Part shown: piece after piece, positions 35,014 to 60,299 of the stretch
How the letters are laid out: every line of letters starts with the position of its first letter
Position numbering within the stretch: position 1 is the first letter of the stretch
Source of the DNA: a virus
IMG/VR virus record: IMGVR_UViG_3300032308_002775
Location: 64,001-128,000 of that record
Length of the DNA: 64,000 bases
Strand: one strand, 5' to 3'
Position numbers and translations under genes: made by a program
The notes under the pieces: generated by a model
Seen by the model: the letters and a program-made list of their open reading frames with translations, nothing else
Told to the model about the DNA's origin: nothing
The model's database searches: none

Positions 35014-35090
35014 GCGCGGCTGTGTAGCCGGGCACGAGCATATCTTCGGATATGTTCGTGTTCCGGTTACACAGCCCGCACGTTATTTAT
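35014..35090 (+). terminator. About 30-bp hairpin with C(UUCG)G loop (terminator, processing site or ncRNA)
   Basis: Arms 35014-35044 and 35049-35079 pair with several G-U pairs and are followed by TTATTTAT. Confidence 0.65.
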
Positions 35091-35124
35091 CAGCTTCCAC
35101 TTTTTCCTTTGCTATCAGAGCTTC

Positions 35125-35649
35125 ATGAAGAAACACACGCTCCCCAAGAAGCCGCCTACCAAGCGCCCGCCTTTCGTGATGAAAGAGCCCAACGACAACC
35201 TTGAGGCGTACGGCTGGTCGCTGCAGTGGCTGCGCTACCAGGCGGCTGACGACCCGCAGATCGCCGGTCGCCCGGTGTTTCAGCTGGCCACGGACCTCAA
35301 GACGATCAAGCGTTACGGCGTCGACTTGTCCTTCATCGACCCGAAGTACATCCAGTACATGCTCGACCAGCGCCCTGAGATCAAGAAGGGCGCAGAAAAA
35401 GTCAGGGCCGCGGGTTACACACCCGAGGCCCTGGAGAAGTTCAAGAACATCGTGGTCAAAACGTTTGAAGAACACGTGCTGGTCGACATCGCCCAGAAGT
35501 TCTTCAAGGTCTCCCCGCTCGTCGCCCAGTTCTACGCCGCCAAGCTCGCTTACGAAGATACGTTTGGCGGCGGAGAAGAAGAGGACAACGACGAGGAGCC
35601 GACCGAGCCGCCTCAGATCGAGGCCAAGACCACGAAGTCCCGGCGGTAG
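35125..35649 (+). CDS. Hypothetical protein
   Basis: 174 aa, phage-like codon use, acidic/basic C-terminal tail. Confidence 0.6.
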   Translation: MKKHTLPKKPPTKRPPFVMKEPNDNLEAYGWSLQWLRYQAADDPQIAGRPVFQLATDLKTIKRYGVDLSFIDPKYIQYMLDQRPEIKKGAEKVRAAGYTPEALEKFKNIVVKTFEEHVLVDIAQKFFKVSPLVAQFYAAKLAYEDTFGGGEEEDNDEEPTEPPQIEAKTTKSRR

Positions 35650-35891
35650 CCAACGACCGGCCCGCGCTTGCCCAGGAGAAGCTGGTCGTCGGTATTGCCC
35701 TCGGCGTCGACCGGATACGGACCGCTGGCGTTCGAAACGCCCGGGCGATTCAGCCCAGCCTCGGCCGCCTTTTGCAGTACCATGTTCGAGGTGCTGGCCG
35801 CGAGCAGCTCTTCGATGCTCTTGCTGGTGACCACATAGTCGGCCCGGCCGTTCGTGACCTTCGACAAATCATCGAGAATGGAAACACTCAT
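35613..35891 (-). CDS. Small hypothetical protein (minus strand)
   Basis: MSVSILDDLSKV..., SD GGAGG 5 nt before the ATG on the minus strand. Fills the gap between plus-strand genes. Confidence 0.65.
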   Translation of the reverse strand: MSVSILDDLSKVTNGRADYVVTSKSIEELLAASTSNMVLQKAAEAGLNRPGVSNASGPYPVDAEGNTDDQLLLGKRGPVVGYRRDFVVLASI

Positions 35892-36366
35892 GGAAACCTC
35901 CGAAAACCAGGAATTAACCGTAACGCTGGCCAGTCTAGCGCCGATTCTCAAGCTCGACAAGTTGCAACTGCGCTCGGCGGCCCGCGTTTACAACTACACC
36001 GACGAAAGCGCTGCGCTGCCCAGATTCGTCACCCTGCGGCTGCTTCTGACCGACCTGCTGGAGCGGCTGGCGTTCTTGAAACCCAGCCAGCGCCAGGCGA
36101 TTCTGGAACGATACGACCAGGACGTCGACGATAACCGGGACCAGTGGGAAACCCTGGCTTTCGCCGACGGAAACTGGTGTACCTGGACGGGCCACTACGG
36201 CTGGTTGGATCTGACCAGCGGCGACGTCGTGGCGACGCTGCCCGCCGCTCCGGTTGAGACCATTGGGTACAATCTGGTGACGCTCCATCACCGAGCGATG
36301 GCGCAGCTCAGGAAAAGGATTTCCGATGGCGAAAAACATTCTGCAGGAAGCATGGACGAGCCGTGA
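35890..36366 (+). CDS. Hypothetical protein
   Basis: METSENQELT..., ATG overlapping the minus-strand start. An upstream ATG at 35878 is also possible. Confidence 0.55.
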   Translation: METSENQELTVTLASLAPILKLDKLQLRSAARVYNYTDESAALPRFVTLRLLLTDLLERLAFLKPSQRQAILERYDQDVDDNRDQWETLAFADGNWCTWTGHYGWLDLTSGDVVATLPAAPVETIGYNLVTLHHRAMAQLRKRISDGEKHSAGSMDEP

Positions 36367-37000
36367 AACGTTCGCGACAGTCCTGCTAACACTCTTCCTG
36401 GACCGGTTCGGCGTGGAGGCTCTTGAGTGGGACCCCTCGACGATCGCCCTGGAAATCGAGGAAGAGTTTGATGTCGACCTGCCCCGGCTGAACTTCGACA
36501 AGCTCATGGTGGCTATCCAGATCCTGACCACGGATCGGTTCCACAAAAGCCTGCCGGACTTCATCGAGTTCTGTAACGTCTTGTGCGGCGACATCTACGA
36601 CCCCCACACGTTCGACCCGGCCGACGCCGAGGAGGTCGCCTGGGGGATCACCGAGAGCATGCTCATTGCGCCGCCGGATGACGAGGACAACGAGCCGTTC
36701 ACTGACGAGATCCGCGCCTACATCGGCATGGTGCTCGACCAGGAAGGGATCATGAACGCTCCCGACGTTCTGCGGATCGCGCTGCGCAAGGCGCACGTCT
36801 CCCAGTCCGTCGAAGATTTCTCGGACGACCCGGAAATGTTCAGCGCCATCTACGACGTCGAGGCGGCCAAGACCGCCGAGATCAATCAAACCATTGTCAC
36901 GAAGACGCAAATTCTAGCTGCGCAATTGACTGCGCTGCAGCTGAAGAACGGTAACACGCAAGCAGTAGCCAAAATGCTGCACGACTCTGTGCAGCGTTAG
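36326..37000 (+). CDS. Hypothetical acidic protein
   Basis: SD AAGGA, 224 aa, strong codon bias. Confidence 0.7.
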   Translation: MAKNILQEAWTSRETFATVLLTLFLDRFGVEALEWDPSTIALEIEEEFDVDLPRLNFDKLMVAIQILTTDRFHKSLPDFIEFCNVLCGDIYDPHTFDPADAEEVAWGITESMLIAPPDDEDNEPFTDEIRAYIGMVLDQEGIMNAPDVLRIALRKAHVSQSVEDFSDDPEMFSAIYDVEAAKTAEINQTIVTKTQILAAQLTALQLKNGNTQAVAKMLHDSVQR

Positions 37001-37015
37001 GCAGAAGGGAACCCA

Positions 37016-37219
37016 ATGCTCGTCCTTTCTCGAAAGAGAAACGAGAAAATACTCGTCGGTCACGACATAAGAATTACGGTCGTCGAAATATTGCCCGACC
37101 GCGTCCGCCTGGGAATCGAGGCGCCAGAGCAGGTGAGCGTGGTGCGCGCCGAACTGGCCAAGAACTGGCGCGGCCGTAAGAAGGCCGGAGAAAATGGGGT
37201 GGAACGACCGTCTGCCTGA
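37016..37219 (+). CDS. csrA: Carbon storage regulator CsrA homolog
   Basis: MLVLSRKRNEKILVGHDIRITVVEILPDRVRLGIEAPEQVSVVRAEL, a canonical CsrA signature. Confidence 0.95.
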   Translation: MLVLSRKRNEKILVGHDIRITVVEILPDRVRLGIEAPEQVSVVRAELAKNWRGRKKAGENGVERPSA

Positions 37220-37505
37220 TTGCGACGCAGGCTTACCATCCGAAGACGAACGCCAGGCTTATTTCGACTGGCAAGAATATCAGCACTATTGCGCGATGCT
37301 CGACGCGGAAATCGAGCAGCAGTCTGCGCCGCCCACTCCAGAACGGATGGGCATCTCTTCGCAGACCATCGATCCCGACAGCTTCGGGGGCCTGTCCAAA
37401 GATATCTTTCCCGACCGGCCCCTTGCACCAAAGGAGTTTGCCAATGCCCCAGGTCAAATCCAAGACCAAGTCAAAGACAAAGACGATCAAAACCCAGAAG
37501 GATAA
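37194..37505 (+). CDS. Hypothetical protein
   Basis: SD GGAG, overlaps the csrA 3' end. Confidence 0.45.
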   Translation: MGWNDRLPDCDAGLPSEDERQAYFDWQEYQHYCAMLDAEIEQQSAPPTPERMGISSQTIDPDSFGGLSKDIFPDRPLAPKEFANAPGQIQDQVKDKDDQNPEG

Positions 37506-37794
37506 GATCGTCGCGCACATCTCGCCGGAGACGCTGTTCAAGGACGGCGGCCTGTTTGACGCCGTGGCGCTTCTGTGCTCCATCTTCAACCGCAAGCCTC
37601 GCCGCCCGTGCGTGCGCCAGGCCACGATCTATGGCGTCAAGCAGATCGCGACCATGCTGCTCGCGCAGGACAAGGACGTACCGGAGGCGCTGCGGCTGCT
37701 GGACAAGGACGCGCTGGCGTCTGGCGACGGCCGATCAACCGTTAGCGAGTTCGTACAGGCGCTCGAGCGGAAGAAGACTGTCGGCCGCCGCTGA
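37444..37794 (+). CDS. Hypothetical protein, Lys-rich N-terminus
   Basis: SD AAGGAG before ATG 37444 (MPQVKSKTK...). Confidence 0.65.
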   Translation: MPQVKSKTKSKTKTIKTQKDKIVAHISPETLFKDGGLFDAVALLCSIFNRKPRRPCVRQATIYGVKQIATMLLAQDKDVPEALRLLDKDALASGDGRSTVSEFVQALERKKTVGRR

Positions 37795-38910
37795 CTTCAC
37801 GGCGGGCTCCAGCCCCTTCTCGGCCGCCAGACGGTCGAGCGTCGAGGCCATGCCGCGGTCCAGGGTGGGCACGATCGCCGCGAGCTTGTCGCGGTCGAGG
37901 TACACGCCACCGGCCGTGACGGCATCGGCGAACTCGTCGCCCAGCCAGGCGCGAACGTCGTCCTCGGCGAGCTTCTCAAGATCCTCGAGGTTGTAGACGT
38001 TGCCCGTGGTCGTCTCGACGTGAGCCTTCATGAAGTCCGCGGCCACCTTCTCGGTGATCGCAAACAGAACCTCTTCAGCCCGGGGCAGGCCGCCAGCGTC
38101 GTAGAGCCGGTCCAAGTGGTTCGCCCGGTCGAACTCATCGACCGCGGAGGCCAGCTTGAGCCGCGTCTCGTGCGTCCGGGCCTGCTCCGGGTTGCGGTCG
38201 ACGACCTCGGCCAGCTTCAACATGCTGCCCGCCGACTCGGGGCTGTGGCGCATGACGAGCGCCGCCCGGTTGCGCAGCATATCGCTGGCAACCTTGGCCG
38301 CGCAGGCGCCTTGCCCGGCTGCCAGCTCCAGGGTGTCCTCGGCCTCGCTCGTGTCGGCGCCGTACTCGGCCGCCTTCTCGAGGATCTTCGTAGCGATCGT
38401 GTGCCGGTCCTCAAAGGTGAACTGGTCGCGATGCGCCTTGAAATGGGCGGCTGCGAACTTCACCTCGGTGGCGTTGCGCAGCGGCCAGTGCCGGTCCTTG
38501 TTACCGGCCTCGTCGGCCCAAACGATGGCGAACTCGCTGTCAGGGAGGCTGGCCAGGTCGGTCTTGGTCGACGAGGCCACCTTGCCGCGGAGTTCCTTCA
38601 CGAGGCCGGTAATGCCAAAATAACTGGCAGCGGCGTCGATCCGCTCCTCAATCTGGGCGGCGTTGTCCGACTTAAACGAGGCGCGCTTGTCCCCGAAGAA
38701 AAGGGCGGACATCCACGTTGCGGGCGCGGAGTGGCACGGATAGAGTTTGTTGAGCGGATCAGCGTAAAGATGGCGCTGGAGGTTTTCACCCCCCAGCAGC
38801 CGCTCCTGGCTGGCAGCCTTGACGAAGTCGGGCGCCGGGAACAACGCGGTCAGCCGATGGGCTTCGCGACCACTGATGTCTTGCGTCTGATCGAGCGGAA
38901 TGTTTGCCAT
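37735..38910 (-). CDS. Probable head/internal virion protein with two DUF6582-like motifs and KxA repeats
   Basis: LYADPLNKLYPCHS and LPDSEFAIV...RHWPLRNATEVKFAAAHF resemble the 'LPDS.FA.P..R.YP' motif. Twelve KxA[SAE] sites. Confidence 0.55.
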   Translation of the reverse strand: MANIPLDQTQDISGREAHRLTALFPAPDFVKAASQERLLGGENLQRHLYADPLNKLYPCHSAPATWMSALFFGDKRASFKSDNAAQIEERIDAAASYFGITGLVKELRGKVASSTKTDLASLPDSEFAIVWADEAGNKDRHWPLRNATEVKFAAAHFKAHRDQFTFEDRHTIATKILEKAAEYGADTSEAEDTLELAAGQGACAAKVASDMLRNRAALVMRHSPESAGSMLKLAEVVDRNPEQARTHETRLKLASAVDEFDRANHLDRLYDAGGLPRAEEVLFAITEKVAADFMKAHVETTTGNVYNLEDLEKLAEDDVRAWLGDEFADAVTAGGVYLDRDKLAAIVPTLDRGMASTLDRLAAEKGLEPAVKSAAADSLLPLERLYELANG

Positions 38911-41542
38911 GGCGCTGCCTATTTCCTTAGTCCGCCGACACAACCACTTTAAAGCCCTGTCGGCATTGGGCATCCTGCCAGAAAAACCGTTATTTCCAGC
39001 GGTAGTCGACTGTCCTCTCTGCCATCAAGCGGGACTCTACCTGTTCGACGACTTAATGACGGACGGTATCTGGGCGCATTGCGAATCCTGCCGTGCGCAT
39101 GGTGACATTCTAACGTTTGGCGCGCTTGTCTGGAACAACAGCCTGGCCGACGCTATTAACCGGTTTGCCGACCTGGGCGCCGCGGCCCGCGGCGAGGCAG
39201 ACCGGAACGCAGGCGAACACATTCGCTGCTTGGGCCGCTTAAAAACGGCTGAAATGTTCTGGGATACGGCTGCCGGGCAGATCTGGAACCACCACGACGA
39301 CGTTATCGCCTGTCGCCTGCGCGAACTGGGCCTGGACAGTACTGTCGAAGGCTGCGAGGGCCTGATTGGCGTGGCCCATCACGACCAGGTTGCCGAGTTC
39401 TGCAAGGCCGTGGGTCGCGCCACGCCGCCACGAATGCGCGAAAACGGACCGAGTCTGGTCCTGCCTTACTACGATCTACCCGGGCGAATCACGGGCGTCT
39501 TGCTCGTCCAGTACAACGACGAGTTCATGTCGCGGCGGGTTTTCGTACCGCTAACGGGCATCATGCGCCGCAAGGCGGACGCCGGGTATTTTCAGCTGGC
39601 CACGACCCTGCTGCCCAGCCCCAAGGACCTGCGCAACTCGTACTTTGTAACCGATGACCCGTTCTGGGTTATCAAGGCCCAATGCACGCAGCTCAAGGCA
39701 GGACAGCGTCTGTTGCCGCTGGCCGCCAGTTACGCCGGGCCCGAAGCCGTGAGTATCGGACTGAACTGGCAGTCGTTTGCTCCCACGGCGCGGCTGTTTC
39801 ATGCGGCGATGTATACGCCAGAGGTGATTTCCCAGGCCGCCGCTGCCAAGGGTTACGTGTGCATCCTGCCGCCGGAGACCGTGCAGCGGACGCCGCAGCC
39901 CTTGCGCACCCTCCATCGCCTGGCGGCCGTTCGACGCGAGGCGCAGACCTGGCAAACCGCGTTGGAGAAAGCCCTGGCGAACACCAACGAGATGGCCGCC
40001 CAGTCCTTCGTGACCAAACTCACCATCGACCTGAACCGGTTGCAGCACTTCTTTCGCTACCGGCGCCACAAGCTCCCCCAGGACTTCTGCGCCCGGTTGC
40101 TCAGCCAGGTCGAAGACGCGCCCGGTATTCCAGCGAAAGCCCAGCGCCGCGTAATTGTCATCGAGCGCGACGGCTGCTGGTGGACCCATACGAATAATCA
40201 AATCTGCAACGCGCGGCTGCGAATTAACAAAATCGTTTACACCGAGGGCGGCGGGCGGCTGTACGTCGGCACGATCCTGATGGGCGAACAAGAATTCGAA
40301 TTCGCTGACTCGGCCGACAAAATCGAACAGATGGGGTTGCTGGCCTACGCAGCGCAGCATGTGGCAGCCCGCGGCCATCTGCTGATCTACGACCGGCCTT
40401 GGAACTCAAAAAGCCACCAGACGGCGCTGCGTTTCAGCACGCCGGAAATCATCCGGATCACGGGCGTCGCCGGGTGGAACGAGGAAAGCGGGCAGTTCTG
40501 CTTTCGGGATTACTCGATCAGCAATGACGGGACGGTCGTGCCCTGTCTCTACCCGCAAGCCAACAGCGGCGTGCCGAGCTTTCCAGAACCGACCGATGTC
40601 GCCCCCGTAACGATTCACAACCTGCTCACGCCGAGCCACGAGAACGCGCTGTTCTGGTCGACCTTCGCCGCGTTTGCCGCGCAGCTGCTGGCCCCGGTGG
40701 CCGGACGACAACCCGTCGCGACTGCCCTGGTCGGTTCCGCATTCAGCGCCGTTCTGGGTATCGGAGACGCGCTGCAGGGTTTCGTGTTCCGCTCCACGGC
40801 CAGCCAGCGCCAGGCAGCAGCCACAAACCTGATTGCTCACCTCAAGGGCAAACGCTGGCCGGTGCTGGCCCATCACGCGTTCAACGACGCGGAAATGAGC
40901 CGTACCGTGGTGCGCATCCCGGCCGCCGCACTTTTCGTCCGAGCAGCCGAGTGCCCGGCCTGCGTTGCCCCTAGTTATGGCTGGCAGTTCATCCGGGGCA
41001 GCGCCGATACGCTTCCGGACTTTTCAGCCATGCGCTACATTCTGCCCGCCTACATCCAGCGGGCGCTTCAAAACCGCATGGCTGTCGCCTCTCAGCATGA
41101 AAACCTGGCGCGCGCCATCCTGGAAGACCTGGCTGGGTGGCTGAAAGATATCTATGGCGTTACGTTCAATCTGGCCTGCGCGACCAACCGACTGATCACC
41201 CCCGACCGGGCCCACGAGGCCCTGATGGAGGCGGTCAACCTTGGCATCATGGCCGGGAAGATCGATGTCCTGCCCCGCCCCCGTCGAAAGTCGCAGGCCG
41301 GAAACTACGTTTTGAGAAATAAACAGCACTGGTGGTTGAATCAAAAGGCCATAAATCAGTACTGTATTTCTGCTGGCGGAATTAGTCCTAACTGGACAGA
41401 AGTCATTCACCGGCTAACTGCAAACGGCCTGCTCGTTGACGAGCAGAGCGTGCAAGGCATGCCCGGACTTCTGGTCAAGAAAGACTGGTGCGACCAGTTC
41501 TGGTCCGATTACAACCTCACGGATGTGCGCGACATTGGCTAG
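38909..41542 (+). CDS. Primase-helicase-like protein (zinc finger, DnaG-like and DUF927-like parts), catalytic motifs degenerate
   Basis: CPLCH...AHCESCRAHGDIL...LADAINRFA (CHC2-like), LVLPYYDLPGRITG, GWNEESGQFCF. No TOPRIM DxD or Walker A seen. Confidence 0.55.
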   Translation: MALPISLVRRHNHFKALSALGILPEKPLFPAVVDCPLCHQAGLYLFDDLMTDGIWAHCESCRAHGDILTFGALVWNNSLADAINRFADLGAAARGEADRNAGEHIRCLGRLKTAEMFWDTAAGQIWNHHDDVIACRLRELGLDSTVEGCEGLIGVAHHDQVAEFCKAVGRATPPRMRENGPSLVLPYYDLPGRITGVLLVQYNDEFMSRRVFVPLTGIMRRKADAGYFQLATTLLPSPKDLRNSYFVTDDPFWVIKAQCTQLKAGQRLLPLAASYAGPEAVSIGLNWQSFAPTARLFHAAMYTPEVISQAAAAKGYVCILPPETVQRTPQPLRTLHRLAAVRREAQTWQTALEKALANTNEMAAQSFVTKLTIDLNRLQHFFRYRRHKLPQDFCARLLSQVEDAPGIPAKAQRRVIVIERDGCWWTHTNNQICNARLRINKIVYTEGGGRLYVGTILMGEQEFEFADSADKIEQMGLLAYAAQHVAARGHLLIYDRPWNSKSHQTALRFSTPEIIRITGVAGWNEESGQFCFRDYSISNDGTVVPCLYPQANSGVPSFPEPTDVAPVTIHNLLTPSHENALFWSTFAAFAAQLLAPVAGRQPVATALVGSAFSAVLGIGDALQGFVFRSTASQRQAAATNLIAHLKGKRWPVLAHHAFNDAEMSRTVVRIPAAALFVRAAECPACVAPSYGWQFIRGSADTLPDFSAMRYILPAYIQRALQNRMAVASQHENLARAILEDLAGWLKDIYGVTFNLACATNRLITPDRAHEALMEAVNLGIMAGKIDVLPRPRRKSQAGNYVLRNKQHWWLNQKAINQYCISAGGISPNWTEVIHRLTANGLLVDEQSVQGMPGLLVKKDWCDQFWSDYNLTDVRDIG

Positions 41543-41852
41543 GCTTATCAGTTTGTTTGAACAGTTCAACGAGCTGGCAAAACAATACGCCCGCTTCGAC
41601 GACGGCCTTGACGACGATTTTGTCGAAGAGGAGTGGCAGTTTGTCCACGGGTCAGATGACGACGAGGACGAGGACGACGATTTCTTGCGTGCTCCTGCGC
41701 CGAATTACCTCGAGGAAGACGAAGAAGACGAGGAAGACGACGAGGAAGATTACGAAGACGACGAAGATGACCTGGACTGGGACGCCGGAACAGAAGATTA
41801 CGAAGACGACGAGGACAGTGACGACTGGTACGAAGAGGACGAGGAGGACTAA
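41523..41852 (+). CDS. Extremely acidic low-complexity protein
   Basis: C-terminal ~85 aa are mostly D/E with spaced W/Y. Start uncertain. Confidence 0.6.
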   Translation: MCATLARLISLFEQFNELAKQYARFDDGLDDDFVEEEWQFVHGSDDDEDEDDDFLRAPAPNYLEEDEEDEEDDEEDYEDDEDDLDWDAGTEDYEDDEDSDDWYEEDEED

Positions 41853-42304: not shown

Positions 42305-42317
42305 GCGCGAGGTTTGA

Positions 42318-42629: not shown

Positions 42630-42630
42630 T

Positions 42631-43124: not shown

Positions 43125-43134
43125 AGTTAACACC

Positions 43135-43167: not shown

Positions 43168-43173
43168 CGCGCT

Positions 43174-45729: not shown

Positions 45730-47655
45730 TCAGAACCCGCTGAAGAACCGGTCGCCCAGGTCGTCGTCGGCCCAGTTGTCCGGGTTCTCGGCGGCTACAG
45801 TCTGCGCGCTGAGCCGTCCGAGCCCGGCTATCTCGGCGAAGTTTGGCAGCGACTGGTTGATGTGCCAGAGCGCGTTCGTGCCGAAGTTTACGCTTTGGGC
45901 AAAGTCGTCCGAGAGCAGCACGTTCCGGGTAATGGTGTAGATGTCGCCCGAGCTGCGGCTCTCGGTCTTGTTTTCGATGAGCGACAAAAAGTCAGCGATC
46001 AGTCCGGGATTGTCCTGCGTGATCCAGTCGTACTGGAAGAACCGGACCTGCTTGAGCTTGATTGCCTGGCAGGTGTACAAGAGCGAGCGCGTCTTATCGA
46101 GCGAGTAATGCGCGCGGTGGTTGAACGCCGTGGGTTCCTTGTAGACCATCAGGTCCTGCGCCGCCGAGCGGCACAGCCGGATGGCCATGACACGGTCGAG
46201 GTTAAACCCTGCCTGGACCATCACTGTTTCGCGCACCGTTCCGGCGCCGGTGTAGTCGTGCGTGACAAAATCGCACTTAAACAACTCCGAGTACTTCATG
46301 CACTCCACGGCCTCGGCCAGGTGCTCGCCGCCCAGCATGATTCGCTTGCCCCACAGCACGTCGATCACGCCATCGGAACGGAAACCCAAGATCGAAATTA
46401 CGGTGAAAGAAACACCCGCCTCACCGCCGCCGCCCCAGTCAATCGCCAAAATCCGGTGCTTGTACTGATCGAGGTTCTTCAAGCACTCAGGGTCCGGCTC
46501 GCGCTTGTTCTCCCACGGGAGCAGGCAGGCGTTGCGCAGGTCGGTTTCCGTCACGAGCTTCTGCCCGGCGTCAATCGATTCGCCGAGCACCTCGTTGTAG
46601 AACTGGGCCTGCGTGTAGTTAAAGCCTTCGCGTTTTTGCAGCAACGTTGCCCACTTGTCGGGATCGGCGTAGTGCAGGGGCAATAAAAGCTGCGGCACGT
46701 GATAACCCGCGAAGTTCCATCGGCGATCCGGATGCCGATGAACCCAGCGGCCGTGCCTTGGATTGATTGGCTTCTGGCACTTGGCGCAGACCGTGGCTGG
46801 CGCCTTCTCGCTGATGTCGTCCCGGTAGGGGCCGATCATCGCGTCAAGGTCGTGCTCGCGAGACGGAATGTTCCAGTGCCTGCACGAGTGGCACGGGATG
46901 AACCACTCGGCTGCCGAACTGCGCTGATATAACCCCTCTAAAGGGTTATCCAGGGTCTTCGGCGTGCCCGTGAAATGGCTCATCGCGAACCGCGAGTACG
47001 ACATTGTCTCCTGGATAATCGGAATGTGGTCGGGGTCCATGTCCTGGACCTCGTCGATGCACATCCGGTCGCTGGACACACCACGCACCCGGTCGGCGTC
47101 GAGCATCGCGTAGCTGAACAGCATCATGCTCTTGTTCTTGAACGAGCGCTGCAGCACGTTGTTGTCGGTTTCGCTGCCGCACCACTGCGCTTTGATGGGA
47201 GACTGCTCGATAAAGCTCCGAACATAGTTGTTGCTGAACCGACGTATCTGTTCAAAGAGCGGTGTTACGTACAACGTTTTGAAGAACGGGATACTATTGG
47301 CTACCACAACACCATGCGCCGCCAACGAAGTGGATTTCGAGAGCTGACGGCCCGTCTTCCAGACCTGGCTCTTAGGCATGAGCACCCTGAACAGGGGCGC
47401 AAAGGGAAAGTGATCGTGGATTGAGTACGGCTTGCCGTTCAGGTTTAACACCAGCGGCAGGATCGGCTCCAGAGACGGAAACGCGCGCTGCTCGGCCAAC
47501 GCCTTGAGCACCTGCGTTCGCTCATTTGCAGACCTCTGGTCGGTGACGTTAATACCGGCCAGTTCTTCCAGCAGCGATCGAACCCCGTTACCGGGCACTT
47601 CATGCGCTGCTAATTCCAGCGGGTTCACCGCCCGCGTATCTATCGATGGTGACAT
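45730..47655 (-). CDS. Terminase large subunit (GpA-like)
   Basis: Walker A-like KTGRQLSKST, Walker B RGVSSDRMCIDEVQD, GTP coupling motif, Zn motif CHSC...CAKC, FYNEVLG, nuclease AIDWG, DDFAQS. Confidence 0.9.
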   Translation of the reverse strand: MSPSIDTRAVNPLELAAHEVPGNGVRSLLEELAGINVTDQRSANERTQVLKALAEQRAFPSLEPILPLVLNLNGKPYSIHDHFPFAPLFRVLMPKSQVWKTGRQLSKSTSLAAHGVVVANSIPFFKTLYVTPLFEQIRRFSNNYVRSFIEQSPIKAQWCGSETDNNVLQRSFKNKSMMLFSYAMLDADRVRGVSSDRMCIDEVQDMDPDHIPIIQETMSYSRFAMSHFTGTPKTLDNPLEGLYQRSSAAEWFIPCHSCRHWNIPSREHDLDAMIGPYRDDISEKAPATVCAKCQKPINPRHGRWVHRHPDRRWNFAGYHVPQLLLPLHYADPDKWATLLQKREGFNYTQAQFYNEVLGESIDAGQKLVTETDLRNACLLPWENKREPDPECLKNLDQYKHRILAIDWGGGGEAGVSFTVISILGFRSDGVIDVLWGKRIMLGGEHLAEAVECMKYSELFKCDFVTHDYTGAGTVRETVMVQAGFNLDRVMAIRLCRSAAQDLMVYKEPTAFNHRAHYSLDKTRSLLYTCQAIKLKQVRFFQYDWITQDNPGLIADFLSLIENKTESRSSGDIYTITRNVLLSDDFAQSVNFGTNALWHINQSLPNFAEIAGLGRLSAQTVAAENPDNWADDDLGDRFFSGF

Positions 47656-51879: not shown

Positions 51880-51882
51880 CGC

Positions 51883-52245: not shown

Positions 52246-52250
52246 CCAAC

Positions 52251-52442: not shown

Positions 52443-52451
52443 GGAGACCCG

Positions 52452-53945
52452 ATGAATCTTTCCCAGCAGATCAAGGAACTCGTGTGCGCGGGCTTCAGCG
52501 GCATCTGGGTCGACACTCAGGAGTCGGACGACGCCGTGGCCACCGTCAAGAAGCTCTGCGAGGAGCGGGACTGGGGCTTTGAGGTCTGGGACCTCGACCG
52601 CCAGCTCTGCGTCCACAACGCCACGCCCGCTCCCGGCCCTGTCCAGGCGCTCCGCTGGCTCGACACGCCGGACGCGCGGGCCAAGAGCACGCAGCTCCTG
52701 CTGCTCAAGAACTTCCACAAGTATCTGCCCAACCCCGAGGTGATGCAGGTCCTCCAAAACCGCGTTATTACCGGCAAGGCGATCGGCCAGCACGTGATCG
52801 TGATGAGCCCCGTGCTCCAGCTCCAGCCGGAGATCGAGAAGCTTTTCACGATCGTTCACCACGAGCTGCCGGACCGCGCGCAGCTCACGACGATTGCCAA
52901 CGAACTGTTCACCGGCGAGGGCAACACGTTCGAAAAGCCCGCCGACGAGGTGATCGCTAGCGTGATCGACGCCGCCAGCGGGATGACCCGTCTGGAGGCC
53001 GAGAACGCGTTTGCGCTCTCGCTGGTCCGGCACAACACCCTGAGCCCGGACGTGATCTGGAATCTCAAAGCGCAAACCCTGGAGAAGGCTGGCACCCTGG
53101 CCCTCTACCGGGGCGACGCCAGCTTCGACGGCCTGGGCGGCCTCGATAACCTGAAGCAGTTTTGCCTGCGCGCCATGAAGCGCCAGGGCGAGGCTGACCC
53201 CGAGCGCCGTCCTCGCGGCGTGCTCCTGCTCTCGCCTCCGGGCTGCGGCAAGTCGCAGTTCGCCAAGGCGCTGGGCAACGAGGTCGGGCGACCCACAGTC
53301 GTCCTCGACTTCGGCGCGCTGATGGGCAAGTTTGTCGGCGAGTCGGAGGGCAACATCCGCCGGGCGCTCGCCCTGGTGGACGCGATGGCGCCCTGCATCC
53401 TGTTTGCCGACGAGATCGAGAAGGCGCTCTCCGGCGTGGGCAGCTCGGGTCAGACCGACTCGGGCGTCACGGCGCGCCTCTTCGGCACGTTCCTCACGTG
53501 GCTCAACGACCACAAGTCTGACGTGTTCTTCATCGGCACCTGCAATGACGCCAGCAAGCTCCCGCCCGAGTTCACTCGTGCGGAGCGCTTCGACGGCGTG
53601 TTCTTTGTTGACCTGCCGACGGCCGACGCCCGAAACTACATCTGGGACCTGTATCTCAAGAAGTTTGGCCTGGACAAGAACCAGGCCCGCCCGGACGACA
53701 CGAACTGGACCGGCGCCGAGATCAAGAGCTGCTGCCGCTTGGCGGCGTTGCTCGACGTCTCGCTCATCGAGGCCGCGTTCAACGTGGTGCCGGTGGCTGT
53801 GACCAACGCCGAGGCGATCACCAACCTGCGCACGTGGGCTGACGGCCGTTGCCTGTCCGCCGACAACAAGGGTTATTTCAAGAAGGCCGCCGTGAAGGCC
53901 AACGAGCCTGGCACCCGCCGTCGGGTTGCGCCCAGTTCTAACTGA
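52452..53945 (+). CDS. AAA+ ATPase, Ycf46-like
   Basis: Degenerate N-terminal AAA domain (LKNFHKYL). Walker A SPPGCGKS, Walker B ILFADEIEK, SRH LPPEFTRAERFD. Confidence 0.9.
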   Translation: MNLSQQIKELVCAGFSGIWVDTQESDDAVATVKKLCEERDWGFEVWDLDRQLCVHNATPAPGPVQALRWLDTPDARAKSTQLLLLKNFHKYLPNPEVMQVLQNRVITGKAIGQHVIVMSPVLQLQPEIEKLFTIVHHELPDRAQLTTIANELFTGEGNTFEKPADEVIASVIDAASGMTRLEAENAFALSLVRHNTLSPDVIWNLKAQTLEKAGTLALYRGDASFDGLGGLDNLKQFCLRAMKRQGEADPERRPRGVLLLSPPGCGKSQFAKALGNEVGRPTVVLDFGALMGKFVGESEGNIRRALALVDAMAPCILFADEIEKALSGVGSSGQTDSGVTARLFGTFLTWLNDHKSDVFFIGTCNDASKLPPEFTRAERFDGVFFVDLPTADARNYIWDLYLKKFGLDKNQARPDDTNWTGAEIKSCCRLAALLDVSLIEAAFNVVPVAVTNAEAITNLRTWADGRCLSADNKGYFKKAAVKANEPGTRRRVAPSSN

Positions 53946-53969
53946 TAGATATCTATTGAGTTCCCCCTG

Positions 53970-53995
53970 GGCGCGACTGTGTAGTCTCGCCTTTT
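53970..53995 (+). terminator. GTGT-loop hairpin with T-tract
   Basis: GGCGCGACT-GTGT-AGTCTCGCC-TTTT. Confidence 0.55.
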
Positions 53996-54008
53996 CTCAG
54001 GAGACCCC

Positions 54009-54971
54009 ATGAGCACAACTCTCGACGAAGCCCCGCCAGAAATTCCGGCGGGCGACGGCGCGCCAGTCGCCGAGGCCGCGCAGGAAATGCGCGCTTCGAT
54101 GGGCGCCGTCGAGCTGCGTTTCACCTGGCTCGGAACCCAGCGCAAGCTGGCCGACAGCCAGACCCGGCAGGCGGCCGACACCTTCCACGCCGATGCCAAG
54201 AGCGTCAGGGCCAGCAAGGTCCTCATTGACGCCAAGCACCCGGCGTATCGTGCGGCCACCGTCATTCGCAGTCAGGCCCGGGGTTTTCTCCGCGGTATCA
54301 GTCTGCCTTATCCGCAGGAAGGCATCCGCCTGATCAAGTACGACGACATCTCGCGCTTCGAGGCGCAGATGCTGGAGTTTCGCGAACGGCTCGACAATGC
54401 CGTGGCGACGCTCCAGGAACACTACGACGCGATCAAGGCCGACGCCCGCGAGCGGCTGGGCGACCTCTACAACGCGGCCGACTACCCGGCCAGCTTGGAG
54501 GGCGTGTTCAGTCTCACCTGGGATTATCCCAGCATCGAGCCGCCGGAGTACCTGCTCAACTACAACCCGGGGCTGTACCGGCAGCAGCAGGCGCGCGTTC
54601 AGGAGCGTTTCGAGCAGGCCGTGGTCCTGGCCGAAAACGCCTTTGGCGAGCGGCTCCAGGAACTGATCGACCACCTGCTCGAGCGGCTGCGGGGCGTGGA
54701 GACGGGCGAAGCCAAGCGGTTCAGTAACTCGACCGTGGAAAACTTCGCCGAGTTTGCCGCCGAGTTCCGCCGGATGAACATCCGCGGAAACACCCAGCTG
54801 GAAAGCCTGATCAACCAGGCGCAGTCGATTGTGTCCGGCGTCGACTCCAAAGCCATCAAGGCCAACGGAGACCTTCGTCAGACGTTGTCGACTCAAATGG
54901 GTGAAGTGCGCGACGCGCTTGATACGATCCTGGCCAACCAGCCTCGGCGCCGCGTCATGCGGATGGACTGA
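54009..54971 (+). CDS. DUF3150-like helical protein
   Basis: ASKVLID...LPYPQEGIRLI...RLGDLYNAADYP...FAAEFRRMN. SD AGGAG. Confidence 0.55.
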   Translation: MSTTLDEAPPEIPAGDGAPVAEAAQEMRASMGAVELRFTWLGTQRKLADSQTRQAADTFHADAKSVRASKVLIDAKHPAYRAATVIRSQARGFLRGISLPYPQEGIRLIKYDDISRFEAQMLEFRERLDNAVATLQEHYDAIKADARERLGDLYNAADYPASLEGVFSLTWDYPSIEPPEYLLNYNPGLYRQQQARVQERFEQAVVLAENAFGERLQELIDHLLERLRGVETGEAKRFSNSTVENFAEFAAEFRRMNIRGNTQLESLINQAQSIVSGVDSKAIKANGDLRQTLSTQMGEVRDALDTILANQPRRRVMRMD

Positions 54972-56017
54972 TGGATCCGGCCGCCAAGATTCTCGACCCG
55001 ATGATGCCCGACCTTGCGAATCCTCCCCAGGTTCGCAAGCGTCGGGCACCGAAACACGATTTCAAGGACGGCAAGGGCCGTGTATTTGCGCATCGTCACG
55101 ACAACGGCGGCGGTTGGGTTGCCGACACGGCCTGGGTAGCGCCGACAGCGAAGGTCACACGCAACGCCCAGGTTTTCGACTACGCCCGCGTTCACGACAA
55201 CTGCGAGATTACCGGCCAAGCCCGCGTCTTCAACCGCGCGCGGCTCTTCGATAGCGTTGTACTCTCGCAGCGCGCTGCCGTACATGGCCTCGCCATGGTG
55301 CGCAACAGCGCCACAGTCAAAGACAACTGCCAGATCTTCGGCAGTGCGCATGTGTGCGGTAACACCCACCTAAACAACAACGTGCACATCTATGACCACG
55401 CCGTAGTTATCAATTCCAATCTTTGCGGTCCGCGCCGCCAAGACTTTTTTGGCGTTGTTCGTGGCGCCGCGCGCGTGCTTAATTCGCGGTTTCACAACTG
55501 GTTCTCTGTGAGCGATGCAAGTTTGCTTGAAAACGCGCACATCCAGAACGTTGTAACGACATACTCAGCGCGTGTTGTCAATTCGTCCGTGTTCACCAAC
55601 ATTTCGTGGACTTACCACTCGTGGCTCAACGGACAGATCAAAGACCTACCAGAGAATCACGCGCCATACAACGCAGATTCAGTGATTCAGGTGGTTGGTA
55701 CCGTTATCAACTCCGCCATCAACACCACGCCTTGGCGAGTCCATGAGCGCGCGCAGTTTGTAAATTGCACACTTATGTGCGCAATGACCGGCCTGCCAAC
55801 CGACAACACAGCGTTGCACGACGTGTTAGACCCGTTTGACCGCGCTATGGTGGGCGCGGAAGCGCGGCAGCTAGAAGCTATTACCAACGCGGTAAACCGA
55901 ATCATGAATCCGGCAGCCGTTGCGGCAACAGCGCCAATCCCGGCCATCGCCGCGCGTGGAGAAGCCAACTTCGAAGCTGTGCGCCAGCGCCGCATCATGC
56001 GGATGGAGGAAACGTGA
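54971..56017 (+). CDS. Hexapeptide-repeat (left-handed beta-helix) protein
   Basis: GGWVADTAWVAPTAKVTRNAQVFDYARVHDNCEITGQARVFNRARLFD repeats. Confidence 0.75.
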   Translation: MDPAAKILDPMMPDLANPPQVRKRRAPKHDFKDGKGRVFAHRHDNGGGWVADTAWVAPTAKVTRNAQVFDYARVHDNCEITGQARVFNRARLFDSVVLSQRAAVHGLAMVRNSATVKDNCQIFGSAHVCGNTHLNNNVHIYDHAVVINSNLCGPRRQDFFGVVRGAARVLNSRFHNWFSVSDASLLENAHIQNVVTTYSARVVNSSVFTNISWTYHSWLNGQIKDLPENHAPYNADSVIQVVGTVINSAINTTPWRVHERAQFVNCTLMCAMTGLPTDNTALHDVLDPFDRAMVGAEARQLEAITNAVNRIMNPAAVAATAPIPAIAARGEANFEAVRQRRIMRMEET

Positions 56018-56286
56018 ACCTGTACATCCGACCCGACGGCACACTCCAGGCGATCTACGGCGAGGACGTCGATCTGGGCGCGCTTGGCGCCGTAAACGTC
56101 CGCCGCGCGTCTCATGTCGAGCCCGCGGCCAACGGACCGGGCTGGACTGCCGACCTTACCCCAGTCGGCGGTCCGGTCCTGGGGCCGTTCCAGAAACGCA
56201 GCGAGGCCCTGACGGCCGAGATCGCGTGGCTGGACACACGCCTGGCCAACGGACCAGTCACGGTCAGCGGAGGCGGCGGTGAGTAG
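56014..56286 (+). CDS. Conserved small protein ('RRASHVEP' family)
   Basis: IRPDGTLQAIYGE...RRASHVEP...WTADLTPVGGPVLGPF..RSEAL.AE..WL. SD GGAGG. Confidence 0.7.
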   Translation: MNLYIRPDGTLQAIYGEDVDLGALGAVNVRRASHVEPAANGPGWTADLTPVGGPVLGPFQKRSEALTAEIAWLDTRLANGPVTVSGGGGE

Positions 56287-56608
56287 CTGTGTGCCGTGGA
56301 CTTTTGAAGACTTCGAAGGCGACAATCCGTTTGAAAGCGCCGGTACGTTTGATTTCAACATCTGGTACGAGCTGGACTACCCAGACCCAGAGCAGCCTGC
56401 TTTTTACTCTGCAGATTTTGAGATCACTGGCGTCACCTGCACGCATGTAAAATTTGACGGTGGCGGTGACGTACGCCGGGCAACCGACGACGAAAACGAA
56501 CAGCTGGCCGACTGGTTCTCCAGCTATATCGACGGCCATCTCGACGAGTACGAGGCAATCAAGGACCACGCGTTTCAGTACAGTTTTGTGGACGCAGACG
56601 ACGAATAA
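56279..56608 (+). CDS. Acidic hypothetical protein
   Basis: GTG after GGAGG, 109 aa. Confidence 0.6.
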   Translation: MSSCVPWTFEDFEGDNPFESAGTFDFNIWYELDYPDPEQPAFYSADFEITGVTCTHVKFDGGGDVRRATDDENEQLADWFSSYIDGHLDEYEAIKDHAFQYSFVDADDE

Positions 56609-56665
56609 CGGTTTGCAACGCATCAACATGTAAACTGATAACGTTCCCCCGCTGGGAGAAACGTT

Positions 56666-57373
56666 ATGTTTACACGACTGTTGTTGCTGTTGTCGTTGAC
56701 GTTTGCTTGTCTCTCCGTTCCGGCCAACGAGCCGGAATTTTCGTTTCTGAAACCCGTGTGGGAGGAGAACGCGCAGCTGCCGCCCAGCCTGCGCTGCATC
56801 GAAGCTAGACTCGAGCGCAATCATGACCTGCGCGTCGAGGACCAGATCACCTGGGCGCACGAGGGCACGCACTACATCGACGCGCGCCTCAGTCGTTCTC
56901 CAGTGAGAGCCTTCTATTGCCTCCGCGGCAGGGTTGCGCGGTTTCGCAATCCTCGGATATCTATAACCCAAGTCGCGCGGGCCACACCGCCTGCGTTGCG
57001 AGGGACAATCTTCAACACGTATCTGAACAACCCAGACAAACGTGTGTGGGACGATGACCCGCTGTACGTCGTCCACGAATGGAACGCCTACACCAACGGC
57101 TCCCAGGTCCGCAAAGAGTTGGGCTGGGAACGTCGTGGTGAGACTTTGGCGCATATGGCGGAAATGGGGGTTTACGTCTCTGTCTTTGTTTCCTTGACAG
57201 AGTTGAAAGACCCTGCCTATGATCTCGGGCCTCTCGTGGCGTTTGTTCGATGGAACGCGTTGCGAGGGAAAGAGATCGCGGGCGACCAATGGAATGGTCT
57301 CCCGGCGTTCGTTGCGGCCGCACAGCAAGCGTATGCTCCGGCCTTGGATCTGATGTTTCTTGAAAAGGAGTGA
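56666..57373 (+). CDS. Secreted zinc metallopeptidase-like protein
   Basis: Signal peptide MFTRLLLLLSLTFACLSVPA, HEGTH (HExxH), downstream EWNAY. Confidence 0.6.
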   Translation: MFTRLLLLLSLTFACLSVPANEPEFSFLKPVWEENAQLPPSLRCIEARLERNHDLRVEDQITWAHEGTHYIDARLSRSPVRAFYCLRGRVARFRNPRISITQVARATPPALRGTIFNTYLNNPDKRVWDDDPLYVVHEWNAYTNGSQVRKELGWERRGETLAHMAEMGVYVSVFVSLTELKDPAYDLGPLVAFVRWNALRGKEIAGDQWNGLPAFVAAAQQAYAPALDLMFLEKE

Positions 57374-57376
57374 GTT

Positions 57377-57754
57377 ATGAAGTCTGTTTTCTTTGCCCTT
57401 GTTGCGATCGTCTGTGGTTCGGCTCTTGCCGGTGAGTCGGTGAGCGTGCTCAAGCACAGCGACACCGTTGCGACGACCCCTGCCCCCGCTGCCGCTGCGC
57501 CTGTCGCAGTTCCGGCCAACGAGGTGCTTGTCGTCGAGAGCCAGCCTGCACGGCAGATCGTGATTGTCGAGGGCGCCCCGCGGCGCTGCGTGAACGGCCG
57601 TTGCAGCACCAGCTCCCGCTCGGTCTGCACGGGCCCGAACTGCCAGAAGTACGTTGTGCAGGAAGACGCCACCGAAACCGTGCGAAAGCGCTGGTTTGGC
57701 GGCGGCTACGTGGTCCGGAACAACGCCCGTACGGTCGTCAAGCCGGTTCGCTGA
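57377..57754 (+). CDS. Secreted low-complexity protein with CxNGxC motif
   Basis: Signal peptide ending ALA. CVNGRC and CTGPNC. SD AAGGAG. Confidence 0.7.
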   Translation: MKSVFFALVAIVCGSALAGESVSVLKHSDTVATTPAPAAAAPVAVPANEVLVVESQPARQIVIVEGAPRRCVNGRCSTSSRSVCTGPNCQKYVVQEDATETVRKRWFGGGYVVRNNARTVVKPVR

Positions 57755-57781
57755 TTCGATCAGCCTGACAATCTCCTTGCC

Positions 57782-57823
57782 ACGGAGGGCGCATGGGTGT
57801 GTACCTGTGCGCCCTCCGTCTTT
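57782..57823 (+). terminator. 17-bp GTGT-loop hairpin
   Basis: ACGGAGGGCGCATGGGT-GTGT-ACCTGTGCGCCCTCCGT-CTTT. Confidence 0.65.
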
Positions 57824-57847
57824 ACACCCCCAACCCAAGACAAAATC

Positions 57848-58087
57848 ATGCCCACGTTTCGCATCAACGTGTCTGAACAGCACCACAAAGAATTCGTCGT
57901 CACCTGCGACGACCGCCGAAAGGCTGAGGAGCTAGCGGCCAGCATCTTGACTGACGGAGAAATAATGTCGGCCTTGACTACAAAGCCGATTCTTCGCACA
58001 CACGACTCTAAGTCGACTGACTGCCAGATCAACGAAGAGCCGACCGGTTACTACGACTCCGTAGTCGAAACCGCGCTCAACGGTTGA
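57848..58087 (+). CDS. Hypothetical protein
   Basis: MPTFRINVSEQ..., 79 aa. Confidence 0.55.
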   Translation: MPTFRINVSEQHHKEFVVTCDDRRKAEELAASILTDGEIMSALTTKPILRTHDSKSTDCQINEEPTGYYDSVVETALNG

Positions 58088-58110
58088 CCCCTTCTAACCC
58101 CAAGGACACC

Positions 58111-59652
58111 ATGGCACGACTGACCAAGCGCCAGAAGACGATCATTTCCGATGTCGTGAGCCGCTGGGCTCACACTATCAGCGGCACCGAGCCAGAAACC
58201 GTCGAGCGGGTGCAGGCCATTCTGGACCCGGTCTATCGCAGAGAGAAACTCATTCGCCACGTTAAGGTCAAGAAAAAGAAGAAGAACGACACCCGCTGGC
58301 GCGGCTGGCGCACGATTACAAAACGCCTGTCAGCGCCAAAGATCCACGTCGTTCACTCGCCGATCGCGTTCCGAATCGCCGCAGGTGTTCTCCGCGGGCG
58401 GCTTTCCAAGAAGCGCGCCAAAGAGATCTGCCAAGCTTTCGGCGTCACTGACACGTTTGTTGACGGTTTGAAACGGGACACGCTGTTCCGGACCCGCCAG
58501 GACCCGCACTGGTACCGAAACTGCTCAGCGCTGACTGAGGCGTGGGACGAGACGATGCGCGACCCGATTCGAGGAGCGCTCTTGGCCTTGTTTGACGAAG
58601 ACGAAAACGGCGTGTCGCAAAACGAGGCGCTGGCTCGCCGCGCTCGCCGAAGACGACGCGGCGAAACGCGCGCTGACGCAACCAGAGAACGATATCGCGC
58701 CATGTTCACCAAGATGTTTGGCGACCGCGTGCCCGCGTCGCGAAACCTGCTGAAACGAAATCTGGAAAACAACAACCTGTGGCAGGTAATGTTGCCAATT
58801 AACAGACAAAATTTTGGCGCAACAGATAGCCGCACTGCGCTGGGCAACTTCTGGCAGAACGAGAACGGCGGCGGTGCCTCACGCGAGCTGCTTGAAATTC
58901 CGCACAGCCCCGGCGAGCGCACGTCGCTGCACATTCGCCTGGAGTCCGCTACTCTGGATGAAAGCTGGACGACAACCGCCGTCGACGCTGAGATCATGTG
59001 CGCCGGATTGCAGTTTCGTGAACACACGCAAACTTGGCGCAATGACATGCTCCACGCAGCTTCGGTCGTGATGACGTTCCACACGCAGGCCCTGGTGTTG
59101 CTAGGCCGCCCTGCGCTGCACTGCAACCGGGAAGGCGAGCTGCACAACGATGAAGGTCCGGCCGTGGTCTACGCTGACGGCGCCAAGCAGTACTACCTCG
59201 ACGGTCATGCCCTGGGCGCACTCGGCGACAAGATCGTCGAAAAGCCCGAAACTCTCACGCTTGCCGACATTAACGGCGAGCGCAACGAAGAGGTCAAACG
59301 GCTGGCAATCTCGGCTTACGGCTGGTCGCGCTATCTCGACGAGATCGGCGCCGAGGTGATTGACCGGCGCCGAAACGACGTGGACAACACCGTCGAAGCG
59401 CTCGTTCGAATTGCGGAAAATGTCCCGTCGGCGCGTTGGGACAATTTTAATCGCCGCATGCTCGAAACCAACACCACGATTTACAAGAACAAGTTGGTAT
59501 TGGCTTGCCGCTCCACGGCGCGGCAATATTTCCTGTCCGTGCCTGATTTCATCAATACCTGCGAAGCGGGCCAGCAGTGGCTCCATGCAGGTGCAGCCAC
59601 CGATGTCGTGGACGTTATGAATCATCCCGTGCGCCTGATTGGCGCGTCCTGA
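58111..59652 (+). CDS. DUF6745-like protein
   Basis: LHNDEGPAVVYADG...ERNEEVKRLAI..YGWSRY...CRSTARQYFLSVP...TC.AGQQW. SD AAGGA. Confidence 0.65.
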   Translation: MARLTKRQKTIISDVVSRWAHTISGTEPETVERVQAILDPVYRREKLIRHVKVKKKKKNDTRWRGWRTITKRLSAPKIHVVHSPIAFRIAAGVLRGRLSKKRAKEICQAFGVTDTFVDGLKRDTLFRTRQDPHWYRNCSALTEAWDETMRDPIRGALLALFDEDENGVSQNEALARRARRRRRGETRADATRERYRAMFTKMFGDRVPASRNLLKRNLENNNLWQVMLPINRQNFGATDSRTALGNFWQNENGGGASRELLEIPHSPGERTSLHIRLESATLDESWTTTAVDAEIMCAGLQFREHTQTWRNDMLHAASVVMTFHTQALVLLGRPALHCNREGELHNDEGPAVVYADGAKQYYLDGHALGALGDKIVEKPETLTLADINGERNEEVKRLAISAYGWSRYLDEIGAEVIDRRRNDVDNTVEALVRIAENVPSARWDNFNRRMLETNTTIYKNKLVLACRSTARQYFLSVPDFINTCEAGQQWLHAGAATDVVDVMNHPVRLIGAS

Positions 59653-59672
59653 ACAGCAACCAAGGAGCTACC

Positions 59673-60236
59673 ATGAGCACCGCTACTCTCAAGAAGAGCC
59701 GCGTTTCCCAAACTCTCAGCCAGATCGCCGATGCGGTCGAGGCCGTCAAGAACGACGGTCTGCAGATCTTCAGCGAGGCCGCCAGTGTCGGCGACAGCCT
59801 CCGCCAGGGCGACGTCGTCCTGCAGTATCTCGGCAATAACGCCGCTATCCCCGCCCATATCTATCGCAAGCTCGACACGCCCGTCCTCCAGCTCGCTCCG
59901 GGCAGCAGCAAGGGCAGCCGCCACATCCTCTCCAGCGCCGAGGGCGTCGAGATGTGGGAGCCGGTTCCCACGGACGAGGCCTGCGCTCGGTACGTTTACG
60001 CGAAGCACGGCCAGAAGTTCCCCAAGGGCGCCGTTAGTTGGCATCTCGATCACGCCGAAGAGCGCGGCGCACTCGAGACGGCCATGGCGATGGCTGGTCC
60101 GATCTTCCAGCTCTCGCAGCCGACCGTGCTGACCCACCCCGAGCACGGCGACTGGCAGCTCCCCTGCGGCACCTACCGCGTGATCTTCCAGCGGACGCTG
60201 GATGAGCAGGAGCGGATCCAGCGGGTCCTCGACTGA
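59673..60236 (+). CDS. Conserved phage protein (RQGDV...HPEH family)
   Basis: LRQGDV...GSRHIL...LTHPEHGDWQLPCGTYRVIFQR. SD AAGGAG. Confidence 0.7.
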   Translation: MSTATLKKSRVSQTLSQIADAVEAVKNDGLQIFSEAASVGDSLRQGDVVLQYLGNNAAIPAHIYRKLDTPVLQLAPGSSKGSRHILSSAEGVEMWEPVPTDEACARYVYAKHGQKFPKGAVSWHLDHAEERGALETAMAMAGPIFQLSQPTVLTHPEHGDWQLPCGTYRVIFQRTLDEQERIQRVLD

Positions 60237-60255
60237 TCGATCGATAGATATCTTT

Positions 60256-60299
60256 GGGCGGGAGTCCGTGTGTACGGACTCCGCGTCCTCTCTCTCTTC
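60256..60299 (+). terminator. GTGT-loop hairpin with pyrimidine tract
   Basis: GGAGTCCGT-GTGT-ACGGACTCC, extendable stem, then CTCTCTCTCTTC. Confidence 0.6.

Follow-up and report, generated by a model that had tools for sequence, protein, structure and literature searches.

Hairpins capped by C(UUCG)G were found in the mRNA of phage T4 in 1988, as recounted in PMC4371310. One tetraloop and its closing pair are reused there on intergenic hairpins with unrelated stems, and T4 is in this the closest analogue of the elements discussed here, a family of hairpins capped by U(NYGU)A in the phage contig IMGVR_UViG_3300032308_002775 (hereafter G000). We analyzed a stretch of 64,000 nucleotides (the window), which is bases 64001-128000 of this 153,669-bp contig; positions are those of the window unless stated otherwise. 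From sequence comparison, on which the finding wholly rests, these appear to be a real, small and lineage-specific family of sense-strand 3′-end hairpins with a selected but replaceable cap. As in T4, the cap is exchangeable for other stable tetraloops, and the present phage also uses cUUCGg (7 hairpins in a five-genome census). Unlike the T4 cap, U(NYGU)A has no described stability or thermodynamic bonus, and it occurs in 1-5 copies per genome. The family in G000 comprises five hairpins, four of them within the window and one (H4) outside:

35017-35030, plus strand: H5, CGGCT-GTGT-AGCCG; an extension to 35013-35034 gives 8 pairs with one mismatch
53969-53992, plus strand: H1, GGGCGCGACU-GUGU-AGUCUCGCCU, followed by UUUCUC, the ribosome-binding site (RBS) AGGAGA and a start codon at 54009
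57782-57819, plus strand: H2, 17 bp, capped by U-GUGU-A and followed by CUUUAC
60256-60288, plus strand: H3, a 14-bp stem with one bulged G and a U-GUGU-A cap, followed by a CU-rich tract
genome 132192-132215 (beyond the window), plus strand: H4, GGGCAGGGCT-ATGT-AGCCCTGCCC

All five lie on the sense strand, start 23-33 nt past a stop codon and have stems of 9-17 bp. H1, H2 and H3 start 24-27 nt past their stops and are the minimum-energy folds of their gene gaps, and folding bears out the positions 53970, 57782 and 60261 at which an earlier note on this DNA had placed hairpins with a GTGT loop. The core of H1, GGCGCGACT-GTGT-AGTCtCGCC (53970-53991), holds one C.U mismatch. H2 folds with -33.8 kcal/mol (z -4.2), and the inner part of H3 is GGAGTCCGT-GTGT-ACGGACTCC (60261-60282), with the upstream stop at 60236. 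The genome-wide search that had been suggested was made with a covariance model, which matched H1 (E 7e-4) and H5 (E 0.003); its best match in the genome was H4 (E 2.8e-4), a newly found member that had been absent from the seed alignment. The model and a direct structural scan are consistent in giving five members in G000, the match lists of the model being lower bounds (its prefilter missed H3 and the H2 of the relative G001). Each relative has one to three good members, the maximum being 5 sites per genome. Searched against Rfam, the window gives no match at or above the gathering score of a family.

In several respects these hairpins look like intrinsic (Rho-independent) terminators, having a GC-rich stem and a small loop and lying on the sense strand just past a stop codon. 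U-rich tails are found at H1, at H2 and in nearly all H2 lineages, the H2 tail of G000 being weak. The likeness ends at H3, H4 and several H1 orthologues, which have no U-tract, and with a polymerase that is perhaps the phage's own. T4-type phages have PeSL (promoter-early stem-loop) cassettes (Arbiol et al. 2010, PMC2839356), in which, as here, a stop codon is followed by an AT-rich element, a stem-loop terminator or attenuator, a Shine-Dalgarno sequence and the next start codon; they too lie in a block of small variable genes, have G.T pairs in their stems and include some copies that are related in sequence. The present AT-rich element differs, however, in being a genome-wide palindrome that also occurs inside genes, and no sigma-70 promoter is fused to the present stem-loops. 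A scan with the sigma-70 consensus gave a 9/12 match after H2 only and none at H1 or H3, and promoter-like sites were not above shuffled expectation.

The boxB hairpin of the lambda nut site, which is bound by the N protein, is likewise a small RNA hairpin with its information in the loop and not in the stem. It has a GNRA-like pentaloop on a 5-bp stem, a boxA partner and a promoter-proximal location ahead of terminators, whereas the present hairpins have a tetraloop with G at position 3 (G3) and mostly U at position 4, longer stems and no boxA-like partner. The hairpin promoters of phage N4 differ further, being formed in DNA upstream of early genes with a 3-nt loop and a 5-7 bp stem.

G000 has 60% G+C and an estimated completeness of 75% (CheckV). 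It is a phage by its terminase large subunit gene (45730-47628, minus strand) and its tail fiber and baseplate genes. Its sole named distant relative is Salmonella phage Arash (29.5% terminase identity), the virions of which carry RNA polymerase beta, beta′ and sigma (PMC10585845); an INPHARED search gave no close relatives. IMG/VR holds many relatives, of which we sampled 60 loci around the AAA-ATPase and terminase genes (individual relatives are given L numbers below) and the whole contigs G001 (204 kb), G002 (197 kb), G004 (199.1 of ~200 kb) and G005 (144 kb). The plus strand of G000 holds 172 of the 180 genes predicted by a rough codon-based gene caller. Because this one-strand layout is repeated in four long relatives, the sense strand is well defined.

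The bare word TGTGTA is not enriched in the window, with 16 found against 11 expected. Among hairpins the result is different. The intergenic regions of five genomes hold 272 hairpins, 67 of them with tetraloops, and the commonest tetraloop caps are cUUCGg (7), gATATc (5), uGUGUa (5) and GNRA types (~9). For T-GTGT-A this is 5 where ~0.04 would be expected from closing-pair and base frequencies, so that the enrichment of TGTGTA loops among intergenic hairpins, on which the idea of a family depended, is present. In related genomes (0.90 Mb) there are 5 TGTGTA-capped hairpins with a stem of at least 8 bp, and in unrelated viral contigs (0.96 Mb) there are 0; the same comparison gives 14 and 3 for T-NYGT-A caps. 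The intergenic T-RYGN-A class in the five genomes is represented by 10 hairpins on the sense strand, a count that includes H2, which the gene caller had mis-scored as coding, versus 2 on the antisense strand. The enrichment of the cap is specific to this phage lineage.

An alignment of 22 distinct members was made from H1, H2, H3, H5 and one further site. No member departs from the closing T, the loop G3 or the closing A, and at least 90% have T at loop position 4. Nine of 10 stem pairs are altered on both sides. The cells of the alignment remain paired to 94%, a figure that follows from the selection of the seed for pairing, and what is informative is how cap and stem differ: the three cap positions are invariant while the stems covary, and the cap is under selection. 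The loop as a whole had been claimed to be invariant, and this must be given up, as GTGT, ATGT, TTGT, ACGT, GCGT, ACGC and GCGA all occur in relatives. The opposite expectation, that the loop varies freely in related phages, is borne out only in part, with variation at positions 1, 2 and 4 and none at G3 and the closing T and A. The caps found at three of the sites were:

H1 in relatives: ACT and AGT enclosing GTGT, ATGT, GCGT, ACGT, ACGC, ACGA or GCGA
H2 in 15 lineages: GTGT 2, ATGT 4, TTGT 2, GCGT 2, ACGT 1; UUCG, CUUG, GUAAAA and CGUAAA one each
H3 in relatives: GTGT, AAGT, ATGC or large loops

The H2 orthologues were sampled blind to the loop by a search for the conserved stem base, and their pairs were counted by script from the loop outward, the MAFFT alignment of H2 being not structure-consistent. 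A T-NYGT-A cap is found in 11 of the 15 lineages and has been replaced in the other four, and in all 15 the stem, which is GC-rich and 14-19 bp long, and the T-rich tail are retained. In G002 there is no such cap at H1, H2 or H3, yet all three hairpins are kept. In a more distant clade the H1 site is occupied by another, long hairpin.

The stems had been described as unrelated. This is true of H2 and H3, which have nothing in common with H1 and H5 except the cap, but not of H1 and H5, the cores of which (GCGCGaCTGTGTAGtC and GCGCGgCTGTGTAGcC) are identical at 14 of 16 bases, the two differences forming a compensatory pair. In addition, GACTGTGTAGTC is common to H1 of G000 and H5 of G004 and G005. 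The 5′ base of the H2 stem, CCACGGAGGGC (57778-57790), is almost invariant in the 15 lineages while the upper stem turns over. We also observed that this stem base resembles the CACGGAGG ribosome-site motif; it is conceivable that CsrA binding there would open the terminator, giving CsrA-controlled read-through.

The earlier note had offered a DNA-hairpin promoter as one possible function. The structures would then act in DNA, either as hairpin or cruciform promoters for a virion RNA polymerase of the N4 type or as sites for a dimeric protein. After phage Arash, the family probably packages an RNA polymerase, and the hairpins are located in a block of small genes, both of which would suit such a role. 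Every H2 orthologue, however, carries 1-4 G.U pairs, and 2-4 are found in H1 of L003 and in H5 of G005 and L021. A G.U pair of the sense RNA is an A.C mismatch on the opposite strand and a G.T mismatch in DNA. Valid in the sense RNA only, these pairs exclude both a hairpin promoter in DNA and an inverted repeat bound by protein, and they make the hairpins RNA structures of the sense strand. The free variation of the arms around a conserved center likewise speaks against action in DNA, being the reverse of what a protein-bound inverted repeat would show. The 4-nt loop and the long stems do not match the N4 dimensions, and the sites follow stop codons, some with an RBS directly after them, 17 nt before the next start. 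We leave next to no room for promoters or protein sites in DNA, and a DNA-level structure or chance is, even taken together, very improbable. TGTGTA was separately considered as a -10 element and rejected, its spacing to the -35-like words TTGAGT and CTGACA being wrong and the critical second -10 position being G.

With moderate confidence we lean towards an ordinary role, in which these are transcription-stop or message-stabilizing 3′-end hairpins with a lineage-favored cap. They would form in the sense transcript at the 3′ ends of phage messages, behind the stop codons, where they may act as intrinsic terminators or attenuators and may protect the 3′ end of well-expressed upstream messages. 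The U-[N Y G U]-A cap, mostly UGUGUA or UAUGUA, would be favored by this lineage as C(UUCG)G is by T4; it probably aids fast or stable folding of the hairpin or offers a generic contact, and most likely does not single out these hairpins for a protein of their own. That the cap serves the hairpin is argued mainly from the H2 lineages that swapped the cap and kept the hairpin, since at this one site it is interchangeable with other stable tetraloops. We infer both the termination or stabilization activity and the reason for retention of the cap from sequence.

The tails, the operon-end sites and the codon-adapted upstream genes fit termination or attenuation together with 3′-end protection. Throughout the clade H2 has the classic form of an intrinsic terminator, and its tails include CTTTTTAC, TTTTTTTACCC and TTTTATAC; the H1 tail is UUUUCUC in G000, L001, L002 and L006, and H3 is followed by U6 in L006. 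H5 and H4 are placed at operon ends beside large non-coding gaps. All sites then recognized had been said to follow strongly codon-biased genes. Ranked by codon adaptation within the window, the gene before H5 is at the 98th percentile, that before H1 at the 99th and that before H3 at the 92nd, and these three belong to the most codon-adapted genes of the genome. The gene before H2 is at the 75th; the description does not extend to H4, the upstream gene of which is at the 23rd.

Several points weigh against an ordinary terminator or stabilizer. In G000 a fair U-tract is present at H1 only, the H2 tail being CUUUAC, and the CU-rich tails of H3 and H4, judged by their composition, should not release RNA polymerase. 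The H1 orthologues of a clade at 70% identity have AT-rich stems and A-rich tails and are not terminator-like. By analogy with Arash, the polymerase that meets the hairpins may be the phage's own. U(GUGU)A is outside the known extra-stable tetraloops, folding software assigns it no bonus, and a literature search found no paper on U(GUGU)A-type loops. The statement in the earlier note that GUGU is not a standard stable tetraloop is thus upheld: closed by U-A, the loops GUGU, AUGU, UUGU, ACGU and GCGU are all outside the UNCG, GNRA and CUUG classes, and the rare GCGA alone fits GNRA. Two observations on the tails may be added. Within 60289-60327, the CUCUU of the CU-rich tract behind H3 can form pairs, in the minimum-energy fold, with the Shine-Dalgarno sequence AGGAG of the gene starting at 60328. 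The tails behind H2, H4 and H5 are likewise C-rich and G-poor.

A different explanation is that a factor of phage or host reads the cap as an address, be it in boxB-like antitermination, at a site for a processing nuclease, or in a switch at H5. The three cap positions that are invariant across the 22 members with unrelated stems, and the restriction of the motif to one lineage, are what such a reader would leave behind. H1 retains ACU-NNGN-AGU over ~70% protein identity while its outer stem goes from GC-rich to AT-rich, the competing folds at H5 (below) are conserved, and several members have no U-tract. However, a reader would have to tolerate variation at loop positions 1, 2 and 4, the 4 of 15 lineages in which UUCG, CUUG or GNRA-type loops replace the H2 cap, and the loss of the cap from the persisting hairpins of G002, and it would find at most 5 sites per genome. 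The sites are behind stop codons and not promoter-proximal, and there is no second conserved RNA box, the sole shared flank being a DNA palindrome at a variable distance of 2-28 nt. A replaceable loop, sites behind stops and the lack of a boxA-like partner speak against boxB-like antitermination as proposed in the earlier note. A loop-reading protein is possible but not supported, and we consider the cap unlikely to be such an address. More narrowly, it is doubtful that the U-RYGU-A cap is a mark by which a factor of phage or host tunes read-through or cutting at a few gene ends, H5 being the clearest candidate. More remotely, the conserved Y-G-U-A might imitate the U33-G34-U35-A36 stretch in an anticodon loop of the tyrosine type and so attract a tRNA-directed enzyme. 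UGU loops are the minimal substrate of tRNA-guanine transglycosylase (TGT). A link to this enzyme and 7-deazaguanine was rejected, as there is no TGT-family gene in G000, G001, G002 or G004 and the CGU variants do not fit. An RNase III site was dismissed because H2 alone is long enough, and a pseudoknot between the loop and a downstream ACAC because the downstream TTTACAC is constant while the loop changes.

The shared cap might also be due to common descent or copying, with terminator modules that were spread or homogenized by recombination and now mark the borders of swappable cassettes. The near-identity of the H1 and H5 cores with its compensatory difference, and GACTGTGTAGTC shared by H1 of G000 and H5 of two relatives, would be accounted for, and in some hairpins a palindrome half-site is nested in the lower stem. 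The genes between H2 and a conserved 187-aa gene (57848-59652), that is, the stretch from H2 to the gene before H3, differ among relatives, and from its gene content this looks like a replaceable cassette bounded by hairpins. Of the genes between H2 and H3, the 79-aa one is shared with G001 alone, and the DUF6745 gene (513 aa) has no relative in IMG/VR. Against copying, H2 and H3 resemble H1 and H5 in the cap only, and orthologous sites keep the cap over long divergence as their stems turn over, for which selection is needed and not copying alone; the lack of a sigma-70-like promoter joined to the hairpins also counts against it. We hold this explanation to be improbable.

Should the cap simply be one that suits a hairpin well, U(NYGU)A with its invariant G3 would be a tetraloop type not described before and could serve as a marker of transcript ends in this group of uncultured freshwater phages, which is widespread. 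Should a factor read it, the gene ends with these hairpins would form a small regulon in a phage equipped with an RNA polymerase of its own. Either way, they provide five anchor points for mapping transcription units in a phage group without experimental data.

The situation at H5 is special, because its GTGT fold sits in the 5′ arm of a much longer hairpin:

35010-35082, plus strand: long hairpin (~30 bp; C(UUCG)G loop, 35045-35048) where the tail/virion gene block ends

The long hairpin folds with -56.4 kcal/mol (z -10.9), and in it the TGTGTA of the 35017 site pairs with TACACA at 35068. The GTGT hairpin at 35017, which the earlier note gave as an alternative fold, is only the weaker competitor of the UUCG hairpin. 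G004, G005 and five more contigs have an orthologous local hairpin of 11-13 bp, GTGTTCTGACT-GTGT-AGTCGGGACAC, which again lies in the 5′ arm of a long hairpin, and in G004 and G005 the small fold is a much stronger competitor than in G000. Were H5 a switch, the stabilized small GUGU hairpin would block the long terminator hairpin.

Two of the hairpins had been reported to be preceded by the same 11-mer. This is indeed present at 53944 and 60243, but it is not specific to hairpins; the 11-mer GATAGATATCT is a copy of the palindrome SAAAGATATCTTTS (AAAGATATCTTT). The palindrome core AGATATCT has 30 copies in G000 versus ~0.9 expected, which occur inside genes in all three reading frames (9, 6 and 3) and in 12 gene gaps; G001 has 42 copies and G002-G005 have 2-5. 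Further copies in the window are found, for example, at 37400, 41146 and 49715. The two copies next to hairpins are:

53947-53954, no strand assigned: AGATATCT core, overlapping the TGA/TAG stop region of the AAA-ATPase gene; kept in L001-L004 and L006
60246-60253, no strand assigned: AGATATCT core, 10 nt past the stop at 60236; kept in L003, L004 and L006

The palindrome is thus kept at both the H1 and the H3 site in L003, L004 and L006, and GATATC-core variants occur at the corresponding positions in G002, G004 and G005. G002 also seems to use TTTGATATCAAA at the orthologous palindrome places. In some relatives the 3′ half of the palindrome is drawn into the lower stem of the hairpin. The palindrome is present at two hairpin sites only, and a fixed composite site of palindrome and hairpin was ruled out by the 2-28 nt variation in spacing. 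From its distribution we regard the palindrome as a separate DNA-level feature that prefers gene gaps.

In the 70%-identity clade (L040, L030 and L052), 3-8 GGGTGAARAGC-type repeats stand in tandem ~50-150 nt past the AAA-ATPase stop codon, and the 3′ arm of H1, AGTGAAA, makes up the first of them. These repeats are possibly protein-binding iterons ahead of a 320-aa gene. A strong hairpin (-24.5 kcal/mol) is found at 35402-35434 within the coding region 35125-35649; its minus strand reads CAGGGCCTCGGGT-GTGTA-ACCCGCGGCCCTG and gives a weak match to the hairpin model (E 0.15). The window contains no tRNAs, and a tRNA-Met(CAT) and a tRNA-Asn(GTT) are encoded outside it (genome 1873-1945 and 135311-135384). 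The codon-based caller predicts no gene in a low-GC stretch at 26808-30592. Coding-like sequence rich in Cys and in Ser is present there, as is AGCAGCAGATCTAGCAGCAGCGTATCT repeated in tandem, and the codon usage of the stretch is probably foreign.

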